From Promethearchaeota archaeon (GTDB lineage: Archaea; Asgardarchaeota; Lokiarchaeia; Sigyniarchaeales; SOKP01): a stretch of 31,690 nt of DNA. Of this stretch, positions 242-23,105 are shown in pieces. The translations under genes and the position numbers were made by a program. Every line of letters begins with the position of its first letter. The stretch's first letter is position 1. The stretch is from NCBI GenBank assembly GCA_048938895.1, contig JBHLLU010000024.1:34275-65964 (forward strand). The letters are read 5' to 3'. The notes under the pieces were generated by a model. The model saw only the letters and a list, made by a program, of their open reading frames with translations. It had not been told where the DNA came from and searched no databases.

Positions 242-784
242 GTGAATAAAATAGAGCATAAAGGTTTTACATTATGGTTTACTGGGCTCCCCTGTTCAGG
301 GAAAACAGTTCTTGCGAATGCAGTTGCCGAAGACTTAAGAAAAAAAGGAATGAAAGTTGAAAGACTTGACGGTGATATAGTTAGGAAGAATTTAACAAGA
401 GATCTGGGGTTCACAGAAGAAGATCGAAATATGAATATTGAAAGAGTTACATTTGTAGCAAAGTTATTAACTCGAAATGGAGTAGCTGTACTTGCTTCAT
501 TTGTATCCCCATACAACAAAATTAGAGATTACTCTAGAAATGAAATTGGGAATTACATACTTGTTTATGTTAAGTGTTCACTTGAAGAATGCGAAGCAAG
601 AGATGTTAAAGGAATGTATGCAAAAGCGAGGGCTGGAGAAATAAAAGACTTTACAGGAATCGATCATCCATTTGAAGAACCGGATAGAATCGATATCCTT
701 GTTGAAACTGATAAGCAAACTATTGAAGAAAGTAAAAAAATTATTTTAAAGGCTCTAGAAGCTAAAGGGTATTTACCCAATTAA
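242..784 (+). CDS. cysC: Adenylyl-sulfate (APS) kinase
   Basis: P-loop WFTGLPCSGKT, LDGDIVR, LGFTEEDRNMNIER, RDVKGMYAKARAGEIKDFTGIDHPFEEP; 180 aa; GTG start. Confidence 0.96.
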   Translation: MNKIEHKGFTLWFTGLPCSGKTVLANAVAEDLRKKGMKVERLDGDIVRKNLTRDLGFTEEDRNMNIERVTFVAKLLTRNGVAVLASFVSPYNKIRDYSRNEIGNYILVYVKCSLEECEARDVKGMYAKARAGEIKDFTGIDHPFEEPDRIDILVETDKQTIEESKKIILKALEAKGYLPN

Positions 785-816
785 TTCTTTTTTCTTTTTT
801 TTCTTTGATTTTTTTT
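785..816 (+). terminator. Oligo-T tract, probable archaeal intrinsic terminator after cysC
   Basis: TTCTTTTTTCTTTTTTTTCTTTGATTTTTTTT immediately after the cysC stop, between convergent genes. Confidence 0.6.
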
Positions 817-851
817 GTATTTTAATCTACTAGTCTTCATAAAAGGAAGAT

Positions 852-2114
852 TTAATCGATATATCCCAATGCTTGTAATCTATCTAACACTTTCTCTTGT
901 TCTTCTTTTTTTAACCGTTCTCCAACAAAATCTTGAAATTTCAAACTTTCAATCTTTCTTCTTAATTCATCTACTAAATTGGGATAAATTTTTGCAACAT
1001 TATGTTTTTCATGTGGATCTTTAATTAATAGGTACAATTCCTCATTCTTTTTCTTCCGAAAAGGGGCATATATATATTTATATCTATTATCTACTCGAAT
1101 TCCCGATAACCAATCTTCTTTGTTAGGAATAGTGATACCTACTGCTTCTAGATATGCATCTCTATGGGGTAATTTTTCTCCTTTCATTATGGGCAACAAA
1201 CTTTTACCAGTTATTTCGTTCTGTAATGGTAGGTTAAGTAAATCTAAAATTGTTGGGAAAATATCAATATGTCGAATTTGTATAGTTGATTCAGCATGAG
1301 GTATATTCTTTGGATTATAGAAAATCAACGGAACCTTTACAAGATGGTCATACACATTATAACCATGTCCCACATGAATTGGGCGTATCATTTTAGCATA
1401 AGGGATTTTTAATATCCTATATTTCTTTAAAATTCGTACACCTTTTACAAGTAATTTCTTAGTATATCTTTCAAATTTTGAATGTGTAATGCTTTCACCA
1501 TGATCTCCTGTTATTATAACAGTTGTATCTTCTTTTAATAATTTAAGAACCTTACCAATATAGTTATCTATGCTAGCTATGGCTCTTGCATATCTTGATT
1601 TCCCATATTGTTCATTATTCATTTCTTTAAGAACCCGTCTAGGATGGTGTAGAGCCCAGATATGTAAAAGGACAAACCATGGTTCTTTAAAATGAGATTT
1701 GAACTTCTTAAGCAATTTCTCCCCCCATAATGTATGAATTGTCTCAATTCTCTCTCGATAATTGAATTCGTCAAATCCTTTGTCAAAACCTATTTCTTGC
1801 ACTACTGGTCCTGTTATTTCTGCATAAGTATTATACCCTTTTTCTTTTAATATTTCAGGACAGGTAACGATGTCTTTATTTAACGCATATCCAGAGTGAC
1901 TTCTCACTCCATTTTCAAAGGGATAAAGTCCAGTTAGCATACTTGAAAAAGAAGGAGTTGTAGTAGTTGTAGTCGCAATGGTATTAAGAAAACTGAATCC
2001 TTTTTCTTTTAATTTAGAGATATTGGGAATATGACTTTTTCCTGAGTCATAAATATAATCAGCTCTTAAACAGTCTACTACTATGAATAAAATATTTTTC
2101 ACATTTTCCACCAT
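852..2114 (-). CDS. Sulfatase-like hydrolase/transferase (alkaline phosphatase superfamily), Thr at nucleophile position
   Basis: NILFIVVDCLRAD, TTTPSFSSMLTG (in place of CxPSR), LHIWALHHP, ITGDHG, HIDIFPTIL, ELYLLIKDPHEKHNVA, C-terminal RLQALGYI. Confidence 0.85.
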   Translation of the reverse strand: MVENVKNILFIVVDCLRADYIYDSGKSHIPNISKLKEKGFSFLNTIATTTTTTPSFSSMLTGLYPFENGVRSHSGYALNKDIVTCPEILKEKGYNTYAEITGPVVQEIGFDKGFDEFNYRERIETIHTLWGEKLLKKFKSHFKEPWFVLLHIWALHHPRRVLKEMNNEQYGKSRYARAIASIDNYIGKVLKLLKEDTTVIITGDHGESITHSKFERYTKKLLVKGVRILKKYRILKIPYAKMIRPIHVGHGYNVYDHLVKVPLIFYNPKNIPHAESTIQIRHIDIFPTILDLLNLPLQNEITGKSLLPIMKGEKLPHRDAYLEAVGITIPNKEDWLSGIRVDNRYKYIYAPFRKKKNEELYLLIKDPHEKHNVAKIYPNLVDELRRKIESLKFQDFVGERLKKEEQEKVLDRLQALGYID

Positions 2115-2133
2115 TTTCCATCATTTATAATTT

Positions 2134-3105
2134 TTAAGTTACAACTAAATCCACATTATATTTTTTGGAATACCATTCAAAATAATCTCTCAATCCTTCT
2201 TCCTGAGAATATTTTGGTTGAAAATTCAGGAGTTTATTTGCTTTAGTTATATCAGCATAACTATGAAGAATATCTCCCGGTCTTGGATCTTGATAAATTA
2301 TTTTCAAATCTCTTCTATTTGTCATTTTTAACATCAAATTTGCTAGCTGTTCTAAAGCAATTGGAGATCCTAATCCTAAATTTAAGATTTCTCCCGAAAT
2401 ATCATTTTCCGCTGCTAATATATTAGCTTGAACAACATCCTTGACATACGTGAAATCTCTTGATTGTTTCCCATTTCCATAAATTACTAAATCTCTATTA
2501 GAAAGAATCATTCCTAACCATATTGCTATTACCCCGCTATATGGTGAATCTTGTTGTCTTGGTCCATAAACATTGAAATAACGTAAAGAAATCGTTTTTA
2601 TTCCATAAATATTATAAAATATTTGCATATATGCTTCACATGCTAATTTCGATACACCGTAGGGGGAAATAGGAATTCTTGGCATATCTTCTTTTTTTGG
2701 TAGCGTTGGTGTATCACCATATACAGAAGAACTTGATGCAAAAATGACTTTATCTACATTTCTCTTTCTGGCGGCATTTAAAATATTTAATGTGCCATTT
2801 ACATTTACGTCATTGCAGGAATCTGGCATTATAATTGATTGTGGAACGCTGGTAAAGGCTGCTTGATGGTAAACTATCTCAATATCTTTGAATAGTTCTA
2901 ATAATAAACTTAGATCTCTAATATCTCCTTTTATGAACTTGAAAGAGTTATTCCCTAGTATATCTTCAAAATTCTCAAATCGACCATTATATAAATTATC
3001 AAAACCAATTACATTTGCTCCTAATTTAATTAGCTCAAGAGTTAAATTACTTCCGATAAAACCTGCGGCACCAGTAACCAAAACGTTCTTTCCTTCAAAA
3101 TTCAT
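2134..3105 (-). CDS. NAD-dependent NDP-sugar 4-epimerase (GalE/WbpP-like extended SDR)
   Basis: VLVTGAAGFIGSNL, HQAAFTSVPQS, ASSSSVYG, YGVSK, LRYFNVYGPRQ, GKQSRDFTYV. ATG at 3105 preferred over the ORF-track start at 3126. Confidence 0.9.
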   Translation of the reverse strand: MNFEGKNVLVTGAAGFIGSNLTLELIKLGANVIGFDNLYNGRFENFEDILGNNSFKFIKGDIRDLSLLLELFKDIEIVYHQAAFTSVPQSIIMPDSCNDVNVNGTLNILNAARKRNVDKVIFASSSSVYGDTPTLPKKEDMPRIPISPYGVSKLACEAYMQIFYNIYGIKTISLRYFNVYGPRQQDSPYSGVIAIWLGMILSNRDLVIYGNGKQSRDFTYVKDVVQANILAAENDISGEILNLGLGSPIALEQLANLMLKMTNRRDLKIIYQDPRPGDILHSYADITKANKLLNFQPKYSQEEGLRDYFEWYSKKYNVDLVVT

Positions 3106-3314
3106 TATATTTAAAAAATACTTCAAATTTAATTAGGTTTTTTCTCCAAAATATATTCTTAAAAATTATCTTAAATAAAACATTATAAAGAATTCAATGA
3201 TTTATTTATATCACAGAAGAAATTTATCGAAGAAAGTACAGTTTAAACATTAAATGAATTAAAAAATATGAAATATTTCAGATGGAATAAAAGTAAAGCA
3301 TTAAGGTGCAAATT

Positions 3315-4352
3315 TTGAAAAAAATTCTTATTACAGGAGTAAATGGATTTATTGGGTCTCACTTAGTCGATTTCATTATTGATAAAGATGTAGAAATCTA
3401 TGGAATTGAAAGACCAAGTCAAATTTATAGAAATTTATCACACTATTTGAAGAATAAATTTTCATTTGAGATAGATAATAAGAGAGATTTCTTTGGAGAA
3501 CCAATCAAAATACCTACTGATAATGATAAATTCATTCTTCTGGAATGCGATATAAAAAATGCCAGTTTACTAGAGAAAATAATTACAATAGTAACTCCCG
3601 ATATTATTTTCCATTTCGCAGCACAACCAAACATTATCCCTTCATGGGAGGATCCTGTTGATACTATTGAAACAAATGTTATCGGAACGTTAAATATTTT
3701 TGAGCCAATTAAAAAAAATATCCTTAATTCGAGAGTTGTGTCTGCTTGCACAAGTGCGGAATATGGAACCACTGTTCAACTTAACCGACCATTAAAGGAA
3801 AGTGACCCACTTTTAGCCGTTCATCCATATGGGATCAGCAAAATTGCTACTGAATTACTAGCGCGTCAATATTTCTTAAATTTTAATATTGAAATTGTCA
3901 ATCTTAGACTTTTTAATCAAACGGGAATTCGAAAGATTAATGATGCCCCTTCTGACTTTGTAAGGAAAATAGTCGATATTGAACTTGAACATAGTGAACC
4001 TATTATTCAAGTTGGTAATTTAGATTCCTATAGAGATTTCACAGACATTAAAGATTCTATAAAGGCAATTTGGCTTACTGCTTTAAAGGGAAAGCCAGGG
4101 GAAACTTATAATATATGTTCGAACACAAAAGTTCAAATTCGAACACTTTTGGAAATTATTTTACAATTCTCTAAAAAAAAAATTAAGGTTATAGAAAAGT
4201 CCACTCAAAAATTACGAAAAACTGATGAGGATGTTATTATTGGTGATAATTCGAAAATACATAATGAATTAGGTTGGAAACCGATTATACCACTTGAAAC
4301 AACACTTAAAGCTATGTATAATTATTGGTTGGACTATAGCAAAAATAAATAA
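3315..4352 (+). CDS. GDP-mannose 4,6-dehydratase / GDP-4-keto-6-deoxymannose reductase (Gmd/Rmd-like extended SDR)
   Basis: ILITGVNGFIGSHL, FHFAAQ, TSAEYG, HPYGISK, VGNLDSYRDFTD, GDNSKIHNELGWKP. Start placed at TTG 3315, 6 nt after SD-like AGGTG (ORF track gives GTG 3306). Confidence 0.8.
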   Translation: MKKILITGVNGFIGSHLVDFIIDKDVEIYGIERPSQIYRNLSHYLKNKFSFEIDNKRDFFGEPIKIPTDNDKFILLECDIKNASLLEKIITIVTPDIIFHFAAQPNIIPSWEDPVDTIETNVIGTLNIFEPIKKNILNSRVVSACTSAEYGTTVQLNRPLKESDPLLAVHPYGISKIATELLARQYFLNFNIEIVNLRLFNQTGIRKINDAPSDFVRKIVDIELEHSEPIIQVGNLDSYRDFTDIKDSIKAIWLTALKGKPGETYNICSNTKVQIRTLLEIILQFSKKKIKVIEKSTQKLRKTDEDVIIGDNSKIHNELGWKPIIPLETTLKAMYNYWLDYSKNK

Positions 4353-4395: not shown

Positions 4396-6438
4396 CTATG
4401 ATCTTCTAGAGAGAATAAGAAGTATTACACCTAAAGCCGCTAAAGCTCCGCCTCCAGCACCTAAACTTAAAGCTAAAGTATCTCCTAGATCATATGGCGT
4501 CATAGGTAAGTTTTTATCGTCCTCAGCTAATTTGTTAACGAGTATATCTCTAAAAACTGGTAACCATTCTAATATTGCACTCATTTGTATAAAGTTTAAG
4601 CCACCGTTCTGTGCTTGTAATGTCGTATACATTGCATTGCCTTCTTTTGCTTTATACCAGTTATTGACACCCTTTACAGTAACTAACGAATAATCACTAT
4701 CTTCATCCCAAAGTAGGAAACATTGAGTTAGTGTAAGAGTTGATACATAGCTTAACCCAATCTCAAAATAAGGGGGTCCATAAATAGGTGGTGTCCGCTC
4801 AGATAGAAATCCTTCAGGAAGAACTACCTCTCCATTAATAGTTCCATTAGCCCATTGTTCATAGAAAGCTATAGTAGCAACCTGTGTCAGTGTTAGCCCA
4901 TAATCTAACTCAATCAAGTCCGCTGCTCTCCCGGTAGCAGGATCAGCACCAATGAGGGCTCCTAACCAGTTTAAAAGAGCAGTTAATTCACCTGTGCTAA
5001 TACCAAAAGATGCAATGATAGAAGCCTGAGCGGTTGTATCCATTTGCATAGCAGGTAACCACATACTCGAGTAACTATCTCCATAAATGAATGTTTTGTC
5101 ACTTAATGGATCCCATAGAGCTATGCATTCAGCTAATGAGAGACCACTGGCAGTTGGCAACCCAACTTCAAAGTATGGTGCTCCCGCAAAAGACGGATCA
5201 ACTTCACCGAGAAAACCACCAGGGAGAATGACCTCACCAAAAATGGTTCCATTTGCCCATTGCTCATAAAATGCCAAAATAGCTAGCTGACTTACTGTTT
5301 GTCCAGTAGCGTCCAAAACTAATGCAGGGGTAACATTATCAATGAAATTACTTAACCAGGTCAAAATCATTGTTAATTGAGTCGGTGAAAGACCGAAGGT
5401 ACCAATTAATGTCCCCTGGGCAGTTGGGTCTCCAAGTCCCGCAGCTATCCATGTTTCTATGCCACTATCATTTGTAAAGGATAATGGGAGTGAACTGTTC
5501 CATAGGTTCATGCACGTTGCAATAGAGATGTTTGTAGGAGCAGGGATTCCTGCTTCAAATCCTTTTAGCTCAGAAGTGCCAATAAATAACCCAATATCAA
5601 TTCCATCAGGGAAAAAAGTAGCGTTCGCCCATTGTCGATAAAATCCAGTTGCGATTGCTTCTGCTCTGGTGATTCCATAGTTATACTGAAACGCACTGGG
5701 CACAGCATAAGTGATAAGAGTCCAAATATAATCAAACGTGTTCCCGACTTGAGCTATTGTAACATTGTAGTGTCCAGGAATTACCGCATTGGTATATCCA
5801 TCACCACCCAGATATGCTATATAATAGAATATATCATATATCTCTTTCGCACCTGTTCCGTAAGTAGTATCTGTAATTATGCCATGGAAATAATAAGGAG
5901 TGATATATGCATCATAAAAGATACTATCTAACAGATTAGTCCGAGCGGTCAATGTATAGTTTTGGGCAACACCTGTGATATTGGAGACACCAGGTATTCC
6001 TGTATATGGGTCAACAAAAGTAGGATCATTAAAGAAGACATTTGTACCAGCATCAAAACCGTAAGTAAGGTTCAACCAATAGATTGAAAGGTTAACCAAT
6101 TGAGCAGCTGTTCCGAAATCAATAATATCCGGAATTTTAGCTTCGATCTCTGCCTTCAAGCCAAGAAGTGCGCCAGGGGTTGATTTTAATTTTAATAGGG
6201 GCTCCACACCAGCGGAAGCCGCATCGAATACTCCTTTAAGAACATCTGGTAGTCCTAAGACGGGAATTTGTTCCTCCAGAGCTGGAACTGCATCCGCTTT
6301 AATCTTAATCATGGCTTCAGGAACTCCATCAGAGACCAGATCTCGTAGATAATCGTTTGTAACTAAGCCCGTTGGTACTAAACCCGCACCAACAGCTAGC
6401 AAAACAATTGCAGTTATTAATTTAGATTTACTTGACAT
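4396..6438 (-). CDS. Membrane-anchored surface protein with N- and C-terminal hydrophobic helices and three internal ~124-135-aa repeats; possible CD36/LIMP-2 (LmpA)-related repeat
   Basis: N-terminal LITAIVLLAVGAGLV, C-terminal ALAALGVILLILSRRS. Repeated FY(R/E)QWAN(A/G)T...FE(A/V/I)G...C..LW...Q/EL..(I/L)L.WL. Many N-x-S/T sequons. Confidence 0.7.
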   Translation of the reverse strand: MSSKSKLITAIVLLAVGAGLVPTGLVTNDYLRDLVSDGVPEAMIKIKADAVPALEEQIPVLGLPDVLKGVFDAASAGVEPLLKLKSTPGALLGLKAEIEAKIPDIIDFGTAAQLVNLSIYWLNLTYGFDAGTNVFFNDPTFVDPYTGIPGVSNITGVAQNYTLTARTNLLDSIFYDAYITPYYFHGIITDTTYGTGAKEIYDIFYYIAYLGGDGYTNAVIPGHYNVTIAQVGNTFDYIWTLITYAVPSAFQYNYGITRAEAIATGFYRQWANATFFPDGIDIGLFIGTSELKGFEAGIPAPTNISIATCMNLWNSSLPLSFTNDSGIETWIAAGLGDPTAQGTLIGTFGLSPTQLTMILTWLSNFIDNVTPALVLDATGQTVSQLAILAFYEQWANGTIFGEVILPGGFLGEVDPSFAGAPYFEVGLPTASGLSLAECIALWDPLSDKTFIYGDSYSSMWLPAMQMDTTAQASIIASFGISTGELTALLNWLGALIGADPATGRAADLIELDYGLTLTQVATIAFYEQWANGTINGEVVLPEGFLSERTPPIYGPPYFEIGLSYVSTLTLTQCFLLWDEDSDYSLVTVKGVNNWYKAKEGNAMYTTLQAQNGGLNFIQMSAILEWLPVFRDILVNKLAEDDKNLPMTPYDLGDTLALSLGAGGGALAALGVILLILSRRS
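4550..5650 (-). repeat. Three diverged intragenic protein-level repeats
   Basis: The Trp codons of the QWAN motif lie at 5629-5631, 5257-5259 and 4852-4854 (spacings 372 and 405 bp). Outer boundaries are approximate. Confidence 0.8.
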
Positions 6439-9930: not shown

Positions 9931-11568
9931 TTATCTTAGACAAAAACCACATTTCCCGAAAGATTGAATTGTTTGTTCCCAACAGTGGTGATGATATGCC
10001 CTATTACAATGTGGGCATTCTGTATGGCAACTATCTTCACCTGCTATTTTTTTAGCACAACTTGGGCATTCTATTTTATGACAAATAACACAAGATACCA
10101 CAGATACCTCAAAGATTTTCTTTGAAATTAGATTAAATAAATCTACAAGATAGCTAAATGTTGTCCATTCTTTAAAGAAGTCGTTAAATGAAGCATGTAA
10201 ATCATTCTTAATTTTCTCATGAGCTTCAATTTCAAATTCGTTAACCACTTTAATTTCTGGCATTTTCATTGGATAATCAGTAGGTAAATTAATTTGAAAT
10301 TCAAAGGTAAGATCTTCTGTTTTCATTTTTCCTTGCATCTCTATATGAAGATTGGCATTGATTGGGTCATATCTTATATTTTTATAATGATCTTTTAATA
10401 GATCAATTTCAAAGTTAATTCTCGAATTCTTATCTACTAACCATGAAAGTTCTCTTATAATTTCTACAACATCTGACTCCTTTTCTATCCAATTTTTATA
10501 AGATTTTAATTCTGAGATAGGAACATTGATGATTTGTTTAAGTTCAGATGAGATTTCTATAATAGGGGGTTTTGGATAAGGTTCTAAATCGACATCTATA
10601 ATATATTCCTTGAAACCATATGTAACTAGATGTACTTTTATGGATGTTAAACTTTCTGAAATTTTATCACATTCATATTCTCCAGATATGTTTTTATACT
10701 GAGATTCAATTTCTTTGATGAAATAAAGCTTCTTTTCCAATTCTCGTATTATTTCTATAATATGAGTAGGTTTTTTTGAATCCCAGCTGCTCAGAGACAT
10801 TAAAGCAGAATCTGGATCTTTCAAAATGGTTTTTACCTCTTCCGGTAATGAAATTTTTGGTTTTTTTGGAAAATTAGTAAAATCTATTGAAATTACAAAT
10901 GTTTTTGTTAGTGTAATTGTAATATACACATTAATTTCGGCTGCGTTTGTTCCTTTTTGATCGTAAGCATACTCTTGTTGAATTAATCCAAGTTCTGTTG
11001 CCAATTCTAAACTCAAGTGTTCATTTTCATCATATATAGGTTCATCTGGTGATTCAACATTTTCTTTAGAAGGTTCTATACTCGTTTGCTCACTATAAAA
11101 TTTATTGTTGTCATAATTTGAAGGTGTGACATAGTATTCTGGTTGAAATTCTTCGGGATAGGCATTTAGATCAGGAGTGACATACTCCACCTCATTTAAA
11201 TTTTCATAATTATCTCCGATTGTCTCCAAAGTGTCAATTTCTTCTTCTGATTGCTTTTTAATGTTATGCAATTTCTCTTGTATTTGTTTCTCGAGTTCCT
11301 TAACGATGTCAACTACATTATTCTCCGGTCTCCATTTCTGAAATTTCTCTAATTGGATTTCTCCTAATAATTCTTTTATTTCATTATGGAATTTCAAGTG
11401 AGGGGGTTTGTTTGGGAATGTTTCATCAAATTTTATCTCTAATTCATATTTTTTTTCTGGTGTTTCATATACATACCCATATAAATGAGCAATATTACCA
11501 GAAACCATCCAAAAAGAGAATTCCTTTGCTATTCTCTGGGCTTCTTTCAGTATTCGTTCTTTCTCCAA
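9931..11568 (-). CDS. Multi-UBC-like (UEV/RWD) domain protein with C-terminal C4HC3 RING-type zinc finger; putative E3 ubiquitin ligase
   Basis: Four repeats of the beta-strand + (F/Y)PxxP(P) motif, each followed by W...(V/I)(V/I)(D/E)(I/L) helix. C-terminal CVIC...CPHC....HHHCW........CGFC. TTG start. Confidence 0.7.
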   Translation of the reverse strand: MEKERILKEAQRIAKEFSFWMVSGNIAHLYGYVYETPEKKYELEIKFDETFPNKPPHLKFHNEIKELLGEIQLEKFQKWRPENNVVDIVKELEKQIQEKLHNIKKQSEEEIDTLETIGDNYENLNEVEYVTPDLNAYPEEFQPEYYVTPSNYDNNKFYSEQTSIEPSKENVESPDEPIYDENEHLSLELATELGLIQQEYAYDQKGTNAAEINVYITITLTKTFVISIDFTNFPKKPKISLPEEVKTILKDPDSALMSLSSWDSKKPTHIIEIIRELEKKLYFIKEIESQYKNISGEYECDKISESLTSIKVHLVTYGFKEYIIDVDLEPYPKPPIIEISSELKQIINVPISELKSYKNWIEKESDVVEIIRELSWLVDKNSRINFEIDLLKDHYKNIRYDPINANLHIEMQGKMKTEDLTFEFQINLPTDYPMKMPEIKVVNEFEIEAHEKIKNDLHASFNDFFKEWTTFSYLVDLFNLISKKIFEVSVVSCVICHKIECPSCAKKIAGEDSCHTECPHCNRAYHHHCWEQTIQSFGKCGFCLR

Positions 11569-11676: not shown

Positions 11677-12456
11677 TTAAGTTTTTAAATAATATGTTTT
11701 CGCTCTATTTCTAAATTCCTCACTAAAAATTTTATGAGTTATTCTCTTGATTTTGGGAAAAACATAAAATTTTATAAACAATAGAACGATTTTAAGTAGA
11801 TAATTCTTAATTTTAATAAAAGATTCCCCTTGATCTCTCGGTTTTAGTTTAATCGCAATTTCTTTATATTTATAATACGGAACAATTTTAAAAAGCATTT
11901 CTTGAGTCAGAGAATATTCTGATTCGAATTCCAATTCTTGTAATAATTTTGAAGATAATGCTCTAAAACCATTTGTAGGATCTGAGATTTTTCTTCGTAA
12001 AAATAGGAAGTAGAAAGCAGTCATTAATTTAGAACAAAGTTTTCTATTAGGATCCATATCATAATAATATTTAAATCGATTACCAATCACAAATTCAATA
12101 CTATCCTCTAAAATTGGTGTTATAAAATCAGTTATATATTTAGGGGGGTGTTGCCCATCAGCATCTAAAATGATTGCTATATCCATATTGTTTTCTCTGC
12201 AATATTCCAATCCTGTTTTTGTAGCAGCTCCATTACCTCTATTTTTAGGATGTTTAAGAAGTGTGATATTATATTGACTTACAATTTCACTAGTCTTATC
12301 TTTTGACCCATCATCAACTACAATTACACTTAGTTTATCAGAAACGTTATTTGGAATTTGATCAAGTGTTTTTCCAATGTTTAATTCTTCATTAAAAGCG
12401 GGAATCACCACACCAACTTTTAATCCTTGAAATCTATAGGTATTCTCCCCAGTCAT
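11677..12456 (-). CDS. Glycosyltransferase family 2 (polyprenol-phosphate glycosyltransferase / DPM-like)
   Basis: VVIPAFNEE, IVVDDGSKDKT, NRGNGAA, LDADGQHPP, VIGNRF, ISDPTNGFRA. Confidence 0.9.
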   Translation of the reverse strand: MTGENTYRFQGLKVGVVIPAFNEELNIGKTLDQIPNNVSDKLSVIVVDDGSKDKTSEIVSQYNITLLKHPKNRGNGAATKTGLEYCRENNMDIAIILDADGQHPPKYITDFITPILEDSIEFVIGNRFKYYYDMDPNRKLCSKLMTAFYFLFLRRKISDPTNGFRALSSKLLQELEFESEYSLTQEMLFKIVPYYKYKEIAIKLKPRDQGESFIKIKNYLLKIVLLFIKFYVFPKIKRITHKIFSEEFRNRAKTYYLKT

Positions 12457-12743
12457 AATACTTTTATTTGGTAAATTTGACTTCTAAGAAGACAATGATG
12501 GTTTCGGATTATTAACTTAATCTTTATTTAAAATCAATTAATAGAATTATTTTAAGATGAAATCTATTATATATTTTGATATGTGTTAAAATATTCCGTT
12601 ATATAAAATAATAATCATTTAACAAAAGAAATTTGAATTTTACGTGAGACACTCCTATTACCTTTCTTTTTGCATTATTCTTTAATGGTATTTCCTTAAA
12701 CTGAAAAGATAATTTAAAAATTATTTCATTCTTTTTCTTAAAT

Positions 12744-13913
12744 ATGGGAAAAAAGTTGAAAAAAATCTGTTATGTTAATCCCGGAATTAACATCAGAAGA
12801 CCAATTTCCTTTATAATGAATTCACTGAAAAAAAAAGAATATAAAGTTTCAATTTTAACCCCTAGAAAGAAACTTGCAGGAAAAAGAGAAAAAACAAGAC
12901 ATTATGACGACTTTGAAAGAATTAATTTGTTAACTTATCCTGTGTGGACTAAGAGTTCAGGATTTATTTGGCCGATCCCTACAAATTTTGACTTTTTTAG
13001 AAAATGCTGGAAAGCTTTGAAAGAAAATGATATAATTCAAGTATGGGTTCCTTTTTATCCAAATACATTTATCACTTGTTTGTTAAAACTTCTTTTCTTC
13101 AAAAAAAAAACATTGATTTTGACGATGGACACTTTTCCCGCTTATTCTTTTAAAACATCCCCAACTCTAGACATTCTTTTTAAATTGTTTTTTAAAACAG
13201 TTGGAAAGATAGCCTTTATTGCTTCGAATTTTATCTGCATTTACGGGGAATCATTTGTAAAGTATTCAAAAAAAGCGGGGGCACCTCAAAGTAAGATTAG
13301 GATAACACCTACAGGAATAAGTTTAAATCCTAAACCCGCAGAAAAAAATATACGAAACTTGTTTTCTATAAAAGAAGACGATAGAATTGTCCTCTTTGTG
13401 GGTCTTCATAACAATCGAAAAGGTATTGATTTAATTATTAAAACAGTAAATGTTCTTAAGAATGAAAAGATTAAATTTATGTTAGTAGGAGATGGTCCAG
13501 AGAGGAATAAAGGGATTCAATTAGTTAAAGAATTAAATTTAGATAAGAAAGTTATATTTACAGGCACCAGACTTGATGTGCATAATTTCTACGCGAATGC
13601 AGACGTTTTCTTTCTCCCAAGTCGTGGGGAAGGATTAGCTGGTGTTTTAATGGAAGCAATGATTTATCAAGTACCTATAATCACAAGCAATATCGCAGGG
13701 ACTAGGGATTTAGTGATACATATGAATAATGGGTTATTATGTGAAGTAGAAAATTATATATGTTATGCTAGAAAAATAAAAGAACTTTTAAATACCCCAG
13801 AATTAGCTCAGAAATTCAAATCGAATGGATTAAAAATGATTAAAGATCATTATTTATGGGAAAAGAATATTCAGAATTTTATAAGAATTTATGATCAAGT
13901 GAATAATTATTAA
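12744..13913 (+). CDS. Glycosyltransferase family 4 (GT-B)
   Basis: LFVG.....KG, LVGDGPER, ADVFFLPSRGEGLAGVLMEAM (Ex7E), NNGLL. Confidence 0.9.
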   Translation: MGKKLKKICYVNPGINIRRPISFIMNSLKKKEYKVSILTPRKKLAGKREKTRHYDDFERINLLTYPVWTKSSGFIWPIPTNFDFFRKCWKALKENDIIQVWVPFYPNTFITCLLKLLFFKKKTLILTMDTFPAYSFKTSPTLDILFKLFFKTVGKIAFIASNFICIYGESFVKYSKKAGAPQSKIRITPTGISLNPKPAEKNIRNLFSIKEDDRIVLFVGLHNNRKGIDLIIKTVNVLKNEKIKFMLVGDGPERNKGIQLVKELNLDKKVIFTGTRLDVHNFYANADVFFLPSRGEGLAGVLMEAMIYQVPIITSNIAGTRDLVIHMNNGLLCEVENYICYARKIKELLNTPELAQKFKSNGLKMIKDHYLWEKNIQNFIRIYDQVNNY

Positions 13914-14016
13914 TCCTATTAAAACCTATCAGCTGGGTTGGTGCTTCAGATTTTAATAAAATAATTATTCTCTCTTTTATTATTTCTTTATTAAATAAGT
14001 GACAATTATAAAAATC

Positions 14017-14985
14017 ATGATTAAAAATAAAAACATCTTGATTACAGGTGGAGCAGGATTTATTGGGACTCACCTTTTTGAAACTCTTATACAAGAAAAC
14101 AATTATATTGAAGTATTAGATAATTTCAATCGATGTTATTATTCGGGAAAAGAAGAGAATTTTGCAGGTGTATCACAAGATTATGAAATTTTACAAGATT
14201 ATAATATTATCAAAGGAGATTTATTAGATCGCTCCACTTATAACGAAATTTCAGAAGATGTTGAAATTATCTTCCATCTTGCAGCTCATGCAGGAGTGCA
14301 ATATTCAATGCAAAATGTTGAGCAAGTTACAAAAAATAATATAGAGGGATTATTAAATCTCTTTGAATTTGTAAAAAAAAAGGAAGTTCAAAAGTTTGTT
14401 TTTGCATCATCTTCTACTGTTTATGGTAATCCTCTGTATACCCCTGTAGATGAAGATCATCCTAAAAATCCAATATGTCCCTATGGGTTATCAAAATTAT
14501 GTGGCGAGATTTATGCTGATTATTATTTTAGAGAATATTCTATTCCCATAAGTTCACTTAGATTTTACTCTGTATATGGTCCAAGAGGAAGACCAGATAT
14601 GGTTGTGGGAAAATTTTTCGATCTAATTTTACAAAATAAAGAATTGGAAATATACGGGGATGGAGAGCAATTAAGAGATTTTACATATGTTTCCGATATA
14701 GTTGACGGATTAATATTGGCATCTGAAAAAAGAGAATCCTCAGGTCAAGCATTTAATTTAGGTTTGTCTAACCCAATTTCCATTAATCAATTAGTAAACA
14801 AAATTTATGATATATCAAATAAACCTAAGAATGTTAGATATTATGAAAAAAAGAAAGGTGACATGGACATAACCCATGCAGACATAAGTAAAGCAAAAAA
14901 TTTATTAAATTATAATCCTAAAATCAATATTGATGAGGGATTACAAAGAACTTATAATTGGTTTAAGGAACATCAAGGAATTTAA
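14017..14985 (+). CDS. NAD-dependent epimerase, UDP-glucuronate 4-epimerase-like
   Basis: ILITGGAGFIG, HLAAHAGVQYS, ASSSTVYG, YGLSK, LRFYSVYGPRGRPDM (characteristic of the UDP-GlcA epimerase group). ATG 14017 preferred to GTG 13999. Confidence 0.85.
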   Translation: MIKNKNILITGGAGFIGTHLFETLIQENNYIEVLDNFNRCYYSGKEENFAGVSQDYEILQDYNIIKGDLLDRSTYNEISEDVEIIFHLAAHAGVQYSMQNVEQVTKNNIEGLLNLFEFVKKKEVQKFVFASSSTVYGNPLYTPVDEDHPKNPICPYGLSKLCGEIYADYYFREYSIPISSLRFYSVYGPRGRPDMVVGKFFDLILQNKELEIYGDGEQLRDFTYVSDIVDGLILASEKRESSGQAFNLGLSNPISINQLVNKIYDISNKPKNVRYYEKKKGDMDITHADISKAKNLLNYNPKINIDEGLQRTYNWFKEHQGI

Positions 14986-15000
14986 TTAAATTTCAAATGG

Positions 15001-16626
15001 TTAATTTCGTGTAAATTTTTTAACAACTCTCAACCCTTTTATAAGATATTTATCAAAAAATCTCTTCTTATTTAAGAAAGATTCAAAACTATTGATATCA
15101 GAAGTAGTAACTGTTTTAAGCATAAAATTAAAAAATATAAACAGTATTATAAAGATGCTAATTGAAATAAAATCAAAATTCTTAAATAATGTTAGTCCTA
15201 AATCTTCGATTAAGTTAAGACTGACATCTTTAATTAAAAATTCTTTTAAAAGGATTGTAATAACTAAAGGTCCAAAAAATGTCAAATATTGAATTAGGAT
15301 TTTTTTGATATTTAATTTGATATTTCCAAATCTGTAGGTCGCGTATATTTGAATAACCATCGATATTAAATTTCCTATTATTAGACCATACAAAATTGCC
15401 CCTTCAACCCCGCCAAAATAGAGTCCCATAAAAAATAAAGGAATGCTAATTGATGTATAGAGAATCCTTAAAACTAACGATAATTTCACTTTATGTTGAG
15501 CATTTAAATGACTCTGCACAAATGAAGCTAAAATTTTAAAGATTGTTGCTAGTAGTATTAAGCGAAGGAAATTTGAAAAAATAAGGCGACCTTCAAGAAA
15601 TAGAAAATCTAAAACAAACTCAACACTGAAGAATAGGATTCCGGAAATAAACAAGATTAGAAATAATGTCATTCTATAAGCAATTTTATAAATTCTATCA
15701 ATCTGTTCATAGTTTTCTTTTACATTTAAGGTTGTAAAAGAATTTAATAAGGGAAATTGGAACGATTTTATTGAATATTCACTTAATTTTTGATAATTTA
15801 AGGATATATTGAAACCTGTGGCAGCATTTGGTGAAATAAAACCAATTCCCTGAAGTTGAAATTCTCTCCAGACTTTCTCGAACATATCTGTTGCTGCTGT
15901 TGCCCCACCATATCTAAACATCTTAATTAAATCCTCTTTAAATGAATCAGGCTCATTACCTGTGGGTTTAATTCTAAAGACCATAATAAATAGAAAAAGA
16001 CTATTACCCACAAGTGAAATAGTGCTTGATATCAGGATAATCCATGCTGCTACTCCAATTTCAACATTAATTCCTTTGATATATAAAATTAAAAGAGGTA
16101 TTATCTGAAGTCCATCTTTCACAATTACAAAGATTAAGTTATATTTGAATTTATTGAAACCACGATTTATCGCTGTCACAATAAAGTTGAGGCTATTTAC
16201 GAAGATTAATGGTGATAATATATAAAAAAGGGCTACAGTATCAGTATCAAAGAAATTTCTAAGCAGAGTAATTAAAAGTACACTAAATATGAAAATCGGG
16301 ATTAAAAACCCTAATTTAATAATGAATGCATTTTTAATTACAGATTTTATCTTTGTGTTTTCATTTAAAGCTCGATATCTTGGAATATAATAATTTAAAG
16401 CAAAACTATAACCCGGAGGTAATAGCCCGGAGATAGTGACAGTAATTGTGATGAATGAAGTAGCTATTATTAGAAAGCCCCATATCTCATCTGAAAATAA
16501 TCGTGCTAAAAGAAAAGAATATATAAATGTAAAGAACAGGGAAACATAATTAATCATAAAGGAAAAGAGCGTATTAGAAGCTAATGTTCTATACTCTGAA
16601 TTGCCTTCAGATAATGGTTCTTTCAT
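15001..16626 (-). CDS. Oligosaccharide flippase (Wzx/RfbX, MOP superfamily)
   Basis: About 13-14 hydrophobic segments. N-terminal 'LASNTLFSF...LLARLFSDEIWG...ALNYYIPRY' pattern and 'GGVEGA' near TM12. Glycan-locus context. Confidence 0.8.
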   Translation of the reverse strand: MKEPLSEGNSEYRTLASNTLFSFMINYVSLFFTFIYSFLLARLFSDEIWGFLIIATSFITITVTISGLLPPGYSFALNYYIPRYRALNENTKIKSVIKNAFIIKLGFLIPIFIFSVLLITLLRNFFDTDTVALFYILSPLIFVNSLNFIVTAINRGFNKFKYNLIFVIVKDGLQIIPLLILYIKGINVEIGVAAWIILISSTISLVGNSLFLFIMVFRIKPTGNEPDSFKEDLIKMFRYGGATAATDMFEKVWREFQLQGIGFISPNAATGFNISLNYQKLSEYSIKSFQFPLLNSFTTLNVKENYEQIDRIYKIAYRMTLFLILFISGILFFSVEFVLDFLFLEGRLIFSNFLRLILLATIFKILASFVQSHLNAQHKVKLSLVLRILYTSISIPLFFMGLYFGGVEGAILYGLIIGNLISMVIQIYATYRFGNIKLNIKKILIQYLTFFGPLVITILLKEFLIKDVSLNLIEDLGLTLFKNFDFISISIFIILFIFFNFMLKTVTTSDINSFESFLNKKRFFDKYLIKGLRVVKKFTRN

Positions 16627-16850
16627 AATTAACTACTTCTATACTAATTACTAAATTTTTTTTAAAATTAAATTAAAAAATGAAAATATTAAATTTCAAA
16701 TTAATTTTGTGTTATTCTTATTTTTGGGAAAAATTATGTTTTTATTAATCTAAGATAATTTTATGAATTTTCAATTATTTACAAAATTAATTTTGTAAAA
16801 AAAGTTATTTCAAATTAAAGAATTTAAATTTAGGAATATTCTAAGGTATC

Positions 16851-17759
16851 TTGCCAGTACTTGAAAAGTTCCGTGTTGATTTTATCGGAATCGGTGTAAT
16901 GAAAGCAGCATCCTCATGGATTTTTGAATGTCTTAGAGAACACCCCGAAATATGCATGTGTTCCGAAAAGGAACCACATTTTTTTGATTGGCCATTTAGG
17001 TATAAGAAGGGCTTAAAATATTATTCTTCTCTTTTTAGTCATTGTTCTCAAGATAAATTAAAGGGAGAATTTACAGCTAGTTATATTCGCTTTCCAGAAG
17101 CCCTATTGTTAATAAAAAAGCACTTTCCTAATGTAAAATTAATAATTTCATTAAGAAATCCAATTGATAGAGCTATGTCTCAGTATAAATATAATGTACA
17201 ACTAGGTGGAAGGTTAAGTATTTATAAAGATTTTAGAGAAGCTCTTGAAAATGATGAAGATAATATTGTCGAAAGAGGTTTTTATTTCAAGCAATTACAA
17301 AGTTGTTTCGATATTTTCCCAAAAGAACAAGTATTAATCTTGCTTTTCGATGATATTAAAAGCAATCCATTTTTGTTTTTACAACAAATCTATAGATTCT
17401 TAGAATTAAAAGATCTAAATTTTATGCCTAGTCTTTTAAATAAAAAAGTATTACAAACGGGGAGTAAGTCAGCACAGAATAAAATCCCCTTTTTATCAAC
17501 TATTATATTTGGAATGGGGAATTTGATAAATAAATATTCTAAATTAAAGTATATTATATCCACAAGTCAATTTATGGAATATATTAGAAGAATTGTAAAT
17601 TTTAACAGAAAATTTTCATTTCAAGAGAAGGAGAATGAAACTTTAAAAATCAAGGTTGATAATGAAACACGAGAATATCTTTACGAGATTTATAGAGAGG
17701 ATATTGAAAAATTAGAAATATTTCTAGATCGGGATTTAAGGTCTTGGAAAATTGCATAA
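16851..17759 (+). CDS. PAPS-dependent sulfotransferase (heparan-sulfate N/3-O-sulfotransferase-like fold)
   Basis: 5'-PSB loop FIGIGVMKAASSW, KEPHFFD, GEFTASY, 3'-PB SLRNPIDRAMSQY, C-terminal Y..DI.KL..FL.RDL.SW; TTG start. Confidence 0.88.
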   Translation: MPVLEKFRVDFIGIGVMKAASSWIFECLREHPEICMCSEKEPHFFDWPFRYKKGLKYYSSLFSHCSQDKLKGEFTASYIRFPEALLLIKKHFPNVKLIISLRNPIDRAMSQYKYNVQLGGRLSIYKDFREALENDEDNIVERGFYFKQLQSCFDIFPKEQVLILLFDDIKSNPFLFLQQIYRFLELKDLNFMPSLLNKKVLQTGSKSAQNKIPFLSTIIFGMGNLINKYSKLKYIISTSQFMEYIRRIVNFNRKFSFQEKENETLKIKVDNETREYLYEIYREDIEKLEIFLDRDLRSWKIA

Positions 17760-17891
17760 TAAATCTTTATTTTTTGGTATTTAACATTTTAATCAAATTT
17801 TTAACCTTATAGTAATTCTCCTTAATACAATAGTTCAATTAAATCATAAACCTGCTAATCTAATTAACTATTTAATAGGTAGGATGCTTAA

Positions 17892-19400
17892 ATGAATATC
17901 TTCTGGATTGTAACTGATTCAATATGCAATTATGAAAGATCTGATCTACATGGATTACTCCCAATCTATAAGACACTAAAAAATAGCAATGAAGGTTTTT
18001 ATTTTGAAAATGCTCTAGCTCAATTTCCCTCAACAGTACTCTCTATTTTTTCCTTTTTAACTGGTAGATTTCCATATTATATCTTTTCAGATTTTGATAA
18101 ATTAACTAAAACACTCCCGAGTTTAAAAGATAGAAATTTTATAACTCAATTAAAATACAACGGGTATAATATAGAATCTATTTTATTCTGGAGAGAAGGT
18201 GTGGATTTCCTTAAAGAAATTCTTAACCCTTATGATGATAGGGAAATTTTTAAGGGAGATCATTGGCTTGATGCCAAAGAAATTTATGATATCTTCCTAA
18301 AGCAAATTAAACGATTGAAAATTGATGAAGACAATTTTTATTTTATCTTTTTTAGGCCAAGCGATCCTCAAACTGATTTTTGTTTAACAGAAATTATTAA
18401 ATATTTAGAAGACAATTCTCTGTGGAAAGAATCAATATTCATTCTGAATTCAGATCACGGATTTTATGATAAGAACCTTTATAAAAGAATTAAATTATTG
18501 CATTTTGATGATATTCATCAGAGTTCATTACGTTCTGCAATGTTTATGAAAATTCCTTTAAGTTTAACCAATACTTCACCAAGAATTATTGAAAAACGAG
18601 TGTACTTATTCGATATCATGGAGACAGTTTTGGATTATTTAGGTTTTCAGATAGATTATGAACGGGAATCTCTATCATTTAAAGATTTGATTGAAAAAAA
18701 AATTGACATCAATATTACTCGAAAAGTAAGATCAGATTGTTATTTGATATTTCAATCAATTGAAAAAGCTGCAATTTTTCAAAATGATTGGAAGCTTTAT
18801 ATTAACAATGGAAAATATTCCTTATTTGATCTTTCTAAAGATCCACTTGAGAAGAAGGATGTAAGCAAGGTGAATCCAAGAATTTATAAAGATTTATATA
18901 ATTTTTATCTAACAACTGAAGTGCAAGCAAGTGATATTTTCATCTCTGGCTTAAATGATTTTTTTGATGATTCTGTTTTAAAAGGCTTAAAATCAGAATA
19001 CATTTATCTCCCTGATCAATTTCCCCCACAAATTGTAAAATTTCTCAAAGAGCAACTTAAAATCAATAATAAAATAATTTCTCCCATGGAATTAAAAAAC
19101 AATGCCTTATTTAAGAAACAGAAAAATCTAGTTACAATTCTGATTTTCAACAGAATGACAGGATATGGCATAAAAAGGTTACGGAGAAAATTACGAAAGT
19201 ATACTAAGCGTTTCATATTTATAGATACTTCATTATCAGATGCCTCAGGCAGAGCAAACCAAGCAGGATATGTAAAATTTATCATTAATTCGATAATCAA
19301 AAGAAGAAGTCAATTATTTCAAAGATGGAAGGAAATTCTAGTATGGATTTTATATTTCCCCTTTTATTTTAATATGCAGATTAGAAAGTATTATAATTAA
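17892..19400 (+). CDS. Sulfatase-like hydrolase/transferase (alkaline phosphatase superfamily) with basic/hydrophobic C-terminal extension
   Basis: NIFWIVTDS, FENALAQFPSTVLSIFSFLTG, ILNSDHG, FDIMETVLDYLG, LFDLSKDPLEKKDV. Confidence 0.75.
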   Translation: MNIFWIVTDSICNYERSDLHGLLPIYKTLKNSNEGFYFENALAQFPSTVLSIFSFLTGRFPYYIFSDFDKLTKTLPSLKDRNFITQLKYNGYNIESILFWREGVDFLKEILNPYDDREIFKGDHWLDAKEIYDIFLKQIKRLKIDEDNFYFIFFRPSDPQTDFCLTEIIKYLEDNSLWKESIFILNSDHGFYDKNLYKRIKLLHFDDIHQSSLRSAMFMKIPLSLTNTSPRIIEKRVYLFDIMETVLDYLGFQIDYERESLSFKDLIEKKIDINITRKVRSDCYLIFQSIEKAAIFQNDWKLYINNGKYSLFDLSKDPLEKKDVSKVNPRIYKDLYNFYLTTEVQASDIFISGLNDFFDDSVLKGLKSEYIYLPDQFPPQIVKFLKEQLKINNKIISPMELKNNALFKKQKNLVTILIFNRMTGYGIKRLRRKLRKYTKRFIFIDTSLSDASGRANQAGYVKFIINSIIKRRSQLFQRWKEILVWILYFPFYFNMQIRKYYN

Positions 19401-21211: not shown

Positions 21212-21238
21212 AGTTTTATTTAAAAGTGATTAAAAAAG

Positions 21239-22375: not shown

Positions 22376-23088
22376 AAGTTATAATATTAAATGCTGGAAT
22401 TGGTAAAAGGTTGGCACCATTAACGAATAATCTTCCGAAATGTTTGGTCAAAATAGATGAAAGAAATACCATCTTAGATCATCAATTAAAGATTATAACT
22501 AAGGTTGGTTTTACAGATTTCATAATTCCAACGGGTCCATTTGAGAATAAAATAAAAAAACATATTAAAAATAACTATCCATTCATTAAAATCCAATATG
22601 TTAACAATCCAATTTATGATAAATCTAATTACATATATTCTTTATACCTGGCTAAAAAAATAGTTGACGATGATATTTTATTTTTGCATGGAGATTTAAT
22701 ATTTTCTGAAAAATTAGTAAAATTAATACTTGATTCAAAGGAAATAGATTGTGTCTTGGTAAACAAGGAGATACCACCTCCAGAAAAAGATTTTAAAGCC
22801 ATAATTATAGATGAAAGAATAGAAAAAATTGGTGTGAATCTAACTGGGAGTAATGCGGCTTTCTTAGCTCCGTTATATAAACTATCAATAGGATTTATGG
22901 AACAATGGTTTAAAAGAATTGAAGAGTTTATTAAAAAGGGTAAAGTAAATTGTTATGCTGAAGATGCTTTAAATGAATTATTAGGCGATCTTATCTTAAA
23001 ACCCTGTTATTTTGATGAATTTTGTGTTGAGATTGATGATCATGAAGATTTAGAAAGAGTAAAGAATTATATATCTAAACTTAAATAA
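22372..23088 (+). CDS. Phosphocholine/phosphonate cytidylyltransferase family protein (LicC/PntC-like)
   Basis: IILNAGIGKRLAPLTNNLPKCL, NPIYDKSNYIYSL, LHGDLIF, EIDDHEDL. ATGA overlap with the upstream gene. Confidence 0.85.
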   Translation: MKVIILNAGIGKRLAPLTNNLPKCLVKIDERNTILDHQLKIITKVGFTDFIIPTGPFENKIKKHIKNNYPFIKIQYVNNPIYDKSNYIYSLYLAKKIVDDDILFLHGDLIFSEKLVKLILDSKEIDCVLVNKEIPPPEKDFKAIIIDERIEKIGVNLTGSNAAFLAPLYKLSIGFMEQWFKRIEEFIKKGKVNCYAEDALNELLGDLILKPCYFDEFCVEIDDHEDLERVKNYISKLK

Positions 23089-23105
23089 ATAAAGAACTTT
23101 ATTAG

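Follow-up and report, generated by a model that had tools for sequence, protein, structure and literature searches.

FANCL (7kzp_L, 9a0j_L and 3zqs) carries three successive UBC-like folds, each devoid of the active-site cysteine of ubiquitin-conjugating enzymes (E2), followed by a C-terminal RING with its ligands in the C4HC3 order; one study assigns E2 binding to the RING, substrate binding to the double RWD domain and ubiquitin binding to the E2-like fold (ELF) (PMC4543658). Listerin (Ltn1; 8aaf_e, 9ofv_e and 9gy4_F), a protein of about 1,500–1,700 amino acids (aa) with a long HEAT/ARM solenoid, contains one RWD fold directly followed by the RING, and BRE (BABAM2), which has no RING, uses tandem inactive UBC/UEV folds as a scaffold. 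The gene considered here belongs to a Promethearchaeota archaeon of the class Lokiarchaeia and lies in a stretch of 31,690 nucleotides of contig JBHLLU010000024.1 (the window, meaning the whole stretch of DNA that was analysed); its 545-aa product, P0001, is in design like FANCL, listerin or RNF25. We estimate the probability at roughly 60% that P0001 is a single-chain non-catalytic scaffold and RING-type ubiquitin ligase (E3) in a ubiquitin-like pathway of Lokiarchaeia-type Asgard archaea. Since the layout is otherwise known from FANCL and listerin, P0001 is probably a ubiquitin ligase, with a design that predates or parallels the eukaryotic ones.

The literature on Asgard or Lokiarchaeota RWD, RING and FANCL proteins yielded no description of this architecture; the supplementary tables of the Asgard eukaryotic signature protein and asCOG papers, which were not covered, may list the family as E2-like or RWD. 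The papers on Asgard ubiquitin and the endosomal sorting complex required for transport (ESCRT) describe, in their available parts, single UEV proteins, which bind ubiquitin, and small RING proteins, not the architecture of P0001 (PMC9192718; bioRxiv 10.1101/2023.07.25.550441). The sole related mention found is a single Asgard ‘RWD-like’ sequence in the accessible part of a kinetochore study (PMC6601020); beyond it, no prokaryotic counterpart of the ligases with an inactive-E2/RWD body (FANCL, listerin, RNF25) or of the multi-UEV protein BRE was found described in the accessible portions of these sources.

Four UBC/RWD-type folds without an active site

The open reading frame (ORF) at 9931..11568 of the window, on the reverse strand, begins with a TTG codon that aligns with Met1 of homologues and ends with a stop codon at 9931–9933; full-length homologues (57–100% identity) align with P0001 over its entire length, and the G+C content of the window is about 26–38%. 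An earlier note, made from the DNA letters, had read this ORF as four repeats with UBC/RWD-type motifs, each followed by a tryptophan-bearing E2-like helix, without an HPN motif or catalytic cysteine, and as ending in a C4HC3 RING. The coordinates of the ORF and all quoted motifs were found in the translation as given there, namely YELEIKFDETFPNKPP (residues 41–56), FVISIDFTNFPKKP (residues 224–237), YIIDVDLEPYPKPP (residues 322–335), FEFQINLPTDYPMKMP (residues 422–437), the four W-helices (residues 79–89, 262–274, 360–371 and 468–478) and CVIC..CPHC..H..CW..FGKCGFC (residues 493–543). The four repeats and their lack of an active site were borne out as well, by the Pfam, hhalign, AlphaFold2 and motif results that follow.

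The Pfam search recognised the first and the last fold: UQ_con (PF00179) matched residues 38–99 in domain 1 (E-value 6.8e-12, 45.6 bits, above the cut-off of 27) and RWD (PF05773) matched residues 396–481 in domain 4 (26.6 bits, above the cut-off of 22.8). The UBC_like model, which is found on most members of the ESM Atlas listerin clusters, reached 26.7 bits on residues 412–451 of domain 4, just under its cut-off of 27; an NCBIfam scan of P0001 revealed no family. At E ≤ 1, UQ_con matches 43/46 members of the family and RWD 44/46 (best RWD E-value 1.6e-10), and the P0001 gene is the sole RWD match in the whole genome.

Comparison of the repeats by hhalign, using segments of a 41-sequence alignment (A1), related domain 1 to domain 2 (E-value 2.2e-11), domain 2 to domain 3 (3.5e-12), domain 1 to domain 3 (1.4e-6) and domain 1 to domain 4 (1.9e-5, probability 77%), the pairs of domains 2 and 4 and of domains 3 and 4 remaining below significance. 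Against an alignment of the active E2 family of the same genome, domain 1 (1.7e-8) and domain 4 (5.3e-5) were matched, and domains 2 and 3 gave no match. The AlphaFold2 model of the full-length protein, made with a 46-sequence alignment (A2), has a mean predicted local distance difference test score (pLDDT) of 81.7 and a predicted template modelling (pTM) score of 0.58, and contains four units composed of a helix, a four-strand meander and two or three further helices (pLDDT about 85–96).

The most E2-like of the four folds is domain 1, which has HNE in place of the HPN motif; in its alignment with Rad6 a glutamine occupies the column of the active-site cysteine, and its HPN loop lacks four of the residues of Rad6. 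Domain 1 thus resembles the UEV pseudo-E2s (Mms2/Uev1, TSG101/Vps23 and the Asgard UEV-Vps23), which have an E2 fold with a shortened loop and no active-site cysteine; unlike them, it is joined by a disordered linker to a body of RWD folds and a RING, and it has no Vps23 stalk. No ‘HP’ dipeptide occurs in the 545 residues of P0001, and no cysteine in domains 1, 2 or 4: of the 11 cysteines ten lie within residues 493–543, and the remaining one, C300 in strand 1 of domain 3, is not conserved among homologues. With neither an HPN motif nor an active-site cysteine, the folds are of the pseudo-E2/RWD type and, judged from their sequences, all four are catalytically dead. Among 46 sequences, P234 of domain 2, which opens with the RWD-type helix TELGLIQQEY, and P332 of domain 3 are invariant, and W360 of domain 3 is at least 90% conserved.

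The C-terminal Zn domain

The most conserved part of P0001 is its C-terminal Zn domain, a probable RING. Twelve ligands (C493, C496, C501, C504, C514, C518, C521, H526, H528, C529, C540 and C543) are conserved, as counted in 41 aligned Zn domains taken from the P0001 family and from proteins of other architectures. The eight canonical ones (C493, C496, C518, C521, H526, C529, C540 and C543), present in 41/41 domains, follow the C4HC3 order with the spacing C-x2-C...C-x2-C-x4-H-x2-C-x10-C-x2-C. The other four comprise a CxxC...C knuckle in loop 1, the length of which varies among homologues, and H528; C501 and C504 were found in 40/41 domains, C514 in 38/41 and H528 in 36/41, with a cysteine instead in three. 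The C4HC3 designation of the earlier note therefore stands for the eight canonical ligands, but the domain is not a plain C4HC3 RING. The four extra ligands imply a third Zn site, so that, as far as the ligand pattern can tell, the domain would hold three, predicted to be formed by C493, C496, H526 and C529, by C518, C521, C540 and C543, and by C501, C504, C514 and H528.

A profile made of 18 Zn domains (A5) and compared with the PDB placed RBX1 first, at a near-significant E-value of 1e-3; the first 14 rows are distinct RBX1 sequences and 20 of the first 21 are RBX1, followed by RCHY1 and RBX2, and the FANCL RING is absent from the best 60 of the 94 matches. In the alignment with RBX1, C493, C496, C501, C504, C514, C521, H526, H528 and C529 fall on Cys/His columns of RBX1. 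The P0001 domain shares with the RING-H2 domains of RBX1 and RBX2 the CxxC, CxxC, C insertion in the first loop, the H-x-H-C motif and the last ligand pair ten residues past that motif; in the place of the second canonical pair, however, RBX1 has C-x-H and P0001 has C-x2-C, the last ligand of RBX1 is Asp and not Cys, the cullin-binding N-terminal strand of RBX1 is missing from P0001 and the E-value is borderline. RBX1 binds three zincs and has such a loop insertion.

The Zn domain has a pLDDT of 75–88 in the AlphaFold2 model of the full-length protein, and values of 79–95 were noted over this model and that of residues 389–545; in both, a helix at residues 527–537, after the H-x-H-C motif, lies where a RING has its central helix. 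I495, between the first two cysteines, and W530, after C529, are invariant in 41 close homologues and their positions are still hydrophobic in most of the distant ones; these are the classical E2-contact positions of RINGs. Modelling of a complex of the C140-type E2 described below (25-row alignment A4) with residues 486–545 (A3) and three Zn ions scored 0.18 and 0.27, below the mark of 0.32; no controls accompanied it, and it weighs neither way. A PHD finger was considered for this domain and rejected: the C4HC3 spacing fits, but G-K stands ahead of the last Cys pair, where PHD fingers typically have a Trp, and RBX1 scores better.

The linker between domains 1 and 2

Residues 110–183, 74 in number, are predicted to be disordered (pLDDT < 50 in the AlphaFold2 model), and among the four-domain forms the linker varies in composition and, from about 70 to about 160 residues, in length. 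Within it stands a conserved motif, EYVTPDLNAYP, in which T131, P132, D133 and P138 do not vary among 41 sequences and L134 and Y137 are kept in at least 90% of them, the consensus being (E/D)(Y/F/W)(I/V/L)TPD(L/M/F)x(A/S)YP. The motif is retained in four of five listed four-domain forms of 39–45% identity, the rest of their linkers being unconserved, and a weaker second copy, YVTPS, follows downstream in the linker. It matched no known motif class and is possibly a docking or autoinhibitory peptide.

Structural neighbours

A Foldseek search of the PDB with the full-length model gave two FANCL chains as the best matches, 9a0j_L of the Fanconi anaemia (FA) core complex (E-value 8.5e-8, 388 columns, 373-residue target) and 7kzp_L (3.9e-7, 401 columns, 370-residue target). 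These were followed by 6gvw_C of the BRCA1-A complex (5.3e-6), a further FANCL chain, 7kzp_M (2.3e-5), and 6h3c_C of the BRISC complex (2.9e-5), where the chains of the BRCA1-A and BRISC complexes were read as BRE. Ranks 6 and 7 belong to Ltn1 in ribosome-associated quality control (RQC) complexes (9ofv_e and 8aaf_e, about 3.5e-4) and rank 8 to the central domain of FANCL (3zqs_A, 3.8e-3, template modelling (TM) score 0.64 per target, root mean square deviation 4.7 Å, 205 columns); the lower matches include many E2s, Knl1, CENP-O and Mediator subunits. According to this model-based comparison, the nearest solved structures are RING E3s or scaffolds on UBC-like folds.

A separate AlphaFold2 model of residues 389–545, which comprise domain 4 and the RING (pLDDT 87.0), was best matched by Ltn1/LTN1 chains (E-values 3.8e-5, 8.3e-5 and 8.1e-4) over 157–161 columns that cover all 157 residues, FANCL coming after them (8.5e-3). 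The ESM Atlas feature search, where values below 0.9 are leads only by the rule of the tool itself, returned the clusters of the P0001 family first (0.95 and 0.94) and then eukaryotic FANCL (0.89–0.87), listerin (0.85) and RWD+RING (0.82) clusters; with the RING alone it returned FANCL_C-bearing clusters (0.87–0.83).

The layout of FANCL, three UBC-like folds and then a C-terminal RING, is present in the AlphaFold2 model as domains 2–4 and the Zn domain, and to this extent the FANCL-like architecture proposed in the earlier note was correct; the fourth fold, domain 1, is an extra, tethered pseudo-E2 that FANCL does not have. The likeness to FANCL supposed there is likewise borne out in part, by the top-ranking FANCL chains, which the BRE/BABAM2 chains follow in the structure comparison that the note had suggested. 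On the other side, FANCL_d1 reached 12 bits in P0001 against a cut-off of 23.8 (E-value 0.22), the match falling on domain 4 and not on the first fold, while FANCL_d2, FANCL_d3 and FANCL_C gave no match at E ≤ 10; FANCL_d1 matches 5/46 family members (best E-value 2.1e-4). Unlike FANCL, moreover, P0001 is archaeal, has no known FA partners, possesses a RING that would bind a third Zn, and gives a global TM-score of 0.19–0.26 to FANCL. With FANCL Pfam models below their cut-offs, a RING nearest RBX1 by sequence and an extra fold, P0001 cannot be demonstrated to belong to the FANCL family.

Listerin shares with P0001 the RWD fold directly followed by the RING, but P0001 has four UBC-like folds and no solenoid. 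BRE shares the tandem inactive folds, but not the RING; the Pfam BRE model (PF06113) has no match in P0001 and matches 9/46 relatives (best E-value 1.9e-7, a few just over the 25.8-bit cut-off), in which about 60 of 320 model positions, one fold, are covered.

Distribution and evolution of the family

A word-seeded search, in which 8,000 candidates were scored, revealed at least 322 proteins at E ≤ 1e-3; the top 120 of the 322 are full-length (518–591 aa, 57–100% identical). The source labels are Promethearchaeota, Lokiarchaeota and other names of Asgard metagenome-assembled genomes, and the annotations read ‘hypothetical’, ‘ubiquitin-protein ligase’ and once ‘E2 variant’. An exhaustive search of 1.84 billion cluster representatives gave 130 matches, among them four-domain forms down to 41% identity and a second group, of 23–32% identity, covering residues ~188–545 alone; three of seven scanned members of this group also have a weak, sub-threshold N-terminal zf-RING_2 match.

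When 400 genomes of the phylum were searched, 138 had a match at E ≤ 1e-5. Strong multi-domain matches occurred in seven families (f1–f7) of the archaeon's class only, other families showing matches of about 1e-6 or none; 104/134 genomes of family f1 and 45/53 of the archaeon's own genus have a homologue. The count for f1, like the number of homologues, points to selection on the gene. A profile search of 81 sampled genomes of another Asgard class found single folds or RING-only pieces and no multi-domain form.

Domain 1 and the linker are present in families f1–f4. Families f5–f7 contain three-domain relatives without domain 1, forms of 390–436 aa that consist of domains 2–4 and the RING, together with paralogues of 28–32% identity. 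The form with three folds and the RING looks, by parsimony, ancestral, and domain 1 looks like a later fusion in the archaeon's order. Proteins made of right-handed beta-helix (NosD-like) repeats, e.g., P0181 and P0189, have the Zn domain without the other domains at their C-terminus (about 60% identity), which indicates that the RING is a mobile module in these archaea. Of ten scanned proteins that share domain 2 alone, eight have no Pfam family, one has a weak ABC_tran match and one has zinc ribbons.

Genomic context and ubiquitin modules

The P0001 gene lies between a downstream gene that we take, from its translation, to encode isoleucyl-tRNA synthetase (IleRS) and an upstream GT2 glycosyltransferase gene, with sulfation and phosphonate genes nearby. 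IleRS adjoins the homologue in 9/11 loci of the same genus and in 3/13 more distant ones (L027, L036 and L037), these being two of five loci from other genera of the archaeon's family and one from another family, where the homologue is 42% identical; in two more distant loci it lies within 5–7 kb, and in other orders the adjacency is lost. An operon with IleRS as an expression of shared function was rejected, given gaps of 108–188 nucleotides and neighbours of unrelated functions.

In genome G128, of another family of the same class, the locus L029 (G128:C6, 6032–14368) contains, in order, genes for an NTP-transferase, the three-domain homologue, a ThiF ubiquitin-activating enzyme (E1, 409 aa), a UQ_con E2 (E-value 5e-26) and a JAB protein of 472 aa with a long helical tail, after which come a second ThiF gene on the other strand and a VWA-RING gene; no Pfam ubiquitin match was found on this contig. 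In G129 the homologue stands between the NTP-transferase and the E1. The combination of a JAB protein with a coiled coil, a VWA protein and a multi-UEV protein recalls the composition of BRISC and BRCA1-A, which contain coiled-coil MPN proteins and the VWA protein MERIT40.

A check for ubiquitin, E1 and E2, proposed in the earlier note, revealed all three gene types in the genome of the archaeon. One module is a Ub-E1-E2-JAB operon without a RING gene on contig C126 (L040, 2492–6827); this operon ends with a 401-aa protein without a Pfam family, and near it are two more proteins, of 263 and 176 aa, whose C-termini are ubiquitin-like. A second E1-E2 module includes a 173-aa E2 on contig C140, 64% identical to the E2 of the G128 cluster (37% for the C126 E2), and an orthologue of the G128 E1 whose gene is broken, one part standing at the end of C140 and the other at the start of C16 (L042 and L097). 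Directly upstream of the split E1 is the gene of a 2,124-aa protein with MIT domains (E-value 7e-21) and TPR repeats. Of 151 genomes sampled in the class, 136 carry the C140-type E2. Given the linkage of homologue, E1 and E2 in G128 and the orthologous E1 and E2 here, we infer, from this one lineage, that the second E1-E2 module (C16 and C140) is the partner of P0001.

The remainder of the window contains glycan and sulfation genes (242–4352, 11677–19400 and 26732–27634) for APS kinase, sulfatase-family proteins, three NAD-dependent epimerases/dehydratases, two sulfotransferases, GT2 and GT4 glycosyltransferases and a membrane protein of a polysaccharide-synthesis family; in relatives, such genes are accompanied by those of ATP sulfurylase and a phosphodiesterase. 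A phosphonate-biosynthesis-like row at 19520–24242 (+) comprises a phosphoenolpyruvate mutase-nucleotidyltransferase fusion, an Fe-alcohol dehydrogenase, a second nucleotidyltransferase and a thiamine pyrophosphate-dependent decarboxylase. The 710-aa protein encoded at 29208–31340 (+) has a small GTPase domain of the Arf/Roc/Ras type at residues 101–235 (Arf E-value 8.7e-21); such small GTPases are typical of Asgard archaea. The ORFs at 4396–6438 (-) and 24352–26637 (+), of 680 and 761 aa, have no Pfam family, and the 680-aa one, which shares the strand of the P0001 gene, is the next ORF downstream of IleRS. In a listing of sequencing runs, 20 of 21 rows contain the stretch, in full or in part; all are recorded as DNA and come from metagenomes of sediment, marsh or soil, and no RNA dataset with the stretch is among the listed runs.

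Table 1. Parts of the P0001 gene, in window coordinates
Feature	Position	Strand	Basis
Whole gene, P0001	9931..11568	-	ORF and end-to-end alignment of homologues
Domain 1, ~residues 1–105, pseudo-E2 (UEV-like)	11254..11568	-	Pfam UQ_con, Rad6 alignment, hhalign, pLDDT 88–96
Disordered linker, ~residues 106–185	11014..11253	-	pLDDT <50 at residues 110–183
Short linear motif EYVTPDLNAYP, residues 128–138	11155..11187	-	Conservation in 41 sequences
Domain 2, ~residues 186–290, UBC/RWD-like	10699..11013	-	hhalign; model strands 201–240, helices 243–281
Domain 3, ~residues 291–388, UBC/RWD-like	10405..10698	-	hhalign, AlphaFold2 model, conserved P332/W360
Domain 4, ~residues 389–488, RWD	10105..10404	-	Pfam RWD and UBC_like; directly N-terminal to Zn domain
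C-terminal Zn domain, residues 489–545, RING-type, 12 conserved ligands	9934..10104	-	Ligand conservation, RBX1 profile match, pLDDT

Discussion

If P0001 acts as a ligase, the RING (residues 489–545) would recruit a charged E2~Ub, for which the 173-aa E2 of C140 is the candidate, its orthologue being encoded two genes downstream of the three-domain homologue in G128. By analogy with the ELF and double RWD of FANCL, domains 2–4 would form a body holding the substrate or partners; domain 1, which a flexible linker of about 75 residues tethers to this body, is probably a non-covalent binder of ubiquitin or of a ubiquitylated client, in the manner of UEV proteins and the FANCL ELF, and the linker motif EYxTPDLNAYP may dock or autoinhibit.

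Several results weigh against this proposal. FANCL, BRE and Ltn1 reach low global TM-scores (0.16–0.35), as do the long matches of the full-length model (0.14–0.27), so the matches are local or architectural, in the order of domains, and do not reflect a rigid body or overall shape. The Pfam models zf-rbx1, zf-RING_2 and Prok-RING_1 all stay under their cut-offs in P0001 and 46 family members (Prok-RING_1 has an E-value of 0.15 in P0001 and matches 30/46 members, best E-value 3.8e-6), and the cross-brace pairing of ligands would follow from the RBX1 alignment and the C4HC3 spacing. A PDB search with the single Zn-domain sequence, which returned PHD and RING-H2 matches alone, all non-significant (best E-value 0.07), took C501/C504 as the first Cys pair on these fingers. 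In the genome of the archaeon no ubiquitin-system gene adjoins the P0001 gene, and the link with the E1-E2-JAB operon comes from one lineage, two genomes of one family. Finally, the homologue is missing from 8/53 genomes of the archaeon's own genus, including two single-contig genomes, and is thus dispensable.

Other functions can be envisaged for the same architecture. P0001 might, like BRE/BABAM2, be a non-enzymatic scaffold whose tandem folds organise a JAB/MPN deubiquitinase complex that might include a VWA protein, the Zn domain of P0001 being structural or protein-binding; BRE chains at Foldseek ranks 3 and 5, the Pfam BRE matches in relatives and the G128 cluster with its helical-tail JAB and VWA-RING proteins point in this direction. 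We nevertheless consider it unlikely, as BRE lacks the RING, the most conserved part here, the Pfam matches cover a single fold, JAB is ordinary in archaeal Ub operons, including that of this genome, and FANCL outscores BRE in Foldseek. Slightly less likely still is a ligase linked to translation or the ribosome, like listerin or RNF25, whose RWD folds would attach it to the ribosome or to a translation factor: the listerin C-terminus is the best match of domain 4 with the RING, listerin and RWD+RING clusters appear as leads in the ESM Atlas, and IleRS is a recurrent neighbour within the genus and family and once beyond, but adjacency to a housekeeping gene can be plain synteny, it is lost in other orders, and P0001 has neither the HEAT/ARM region nor the N-terminal domain of listerin.

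The absence of an active-site cysteine from all four folds, together with weak Pfam UEV matches in 5/46 members and the ubiquitin binding of Asgard UEV proteins, in the available parts of the papers cited above, would also suit a ubiquitin receptor or sorting adaptor with inactive UBC folds as UEV-type binders (TSG101/Vps23) and no ligase role. This is improbable: it leaves the invariant RING unexplained, the model contains no coiled-coil stalk or steadiness box, and the gene lies outside any ESCRT cluster. A true FANCL orthologue acting in the repair of DNA crosslinks is the least credible of these alternatives and very improbable, in spite of the top Foldseek match and of FANCL clusters being the nearest eukaryotic neighbours in the ESM Atlas, though under the 0.9 mark; besides the differences in Pfam models and RING given above, the sampled genomes of another Asgard class have no multi-domain form and other sampled families have weak matches, and to our knowledge no FANCD2/FANCI-type substrate or FA partner is known or expected in archaea, for which no search was made here.

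The RING-type scaffold remains the preferred description of P0001, and its likeness to FANCL, as judged from sequences and models, may reflect common descent or convergence. More speculatively, and with considerable doubt, the Lokiarchaeia family could be a lineage, still extant in archaea, that is related to the ancestor from which the eukaryotic RWD-RING ligases (FANCL, listerin, RNF25) came, the platform-plus-RING design having arisen by E2 duplication inside a ubiquitin operon, before eukaryogenesis, and the pseudo-E2 tether with its docking motif having been added later in the archaeon's order; the same ancestor may underlie the multi-UEV scaffolds of the BRE type. On this reading P0001 would be a ligase complete in itself, with an arm of its own for ubiquitin binding or autoinhibition.

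A conserved archaeal family of this kind, found sometimes inside an E1-E2-JAB cluster, would date the design before eukaryotes; if the likeness is convergent, the design arose twice. Being small, made of one chain and probably soluble, P0001 may serve as a model of the way in which inactive E2 folds place substrates for a RING; it is also a candidate E3 for the second E1-E2 module of these archaea, the Ub-E1-E2-JAB operon of which includes no RING gene.

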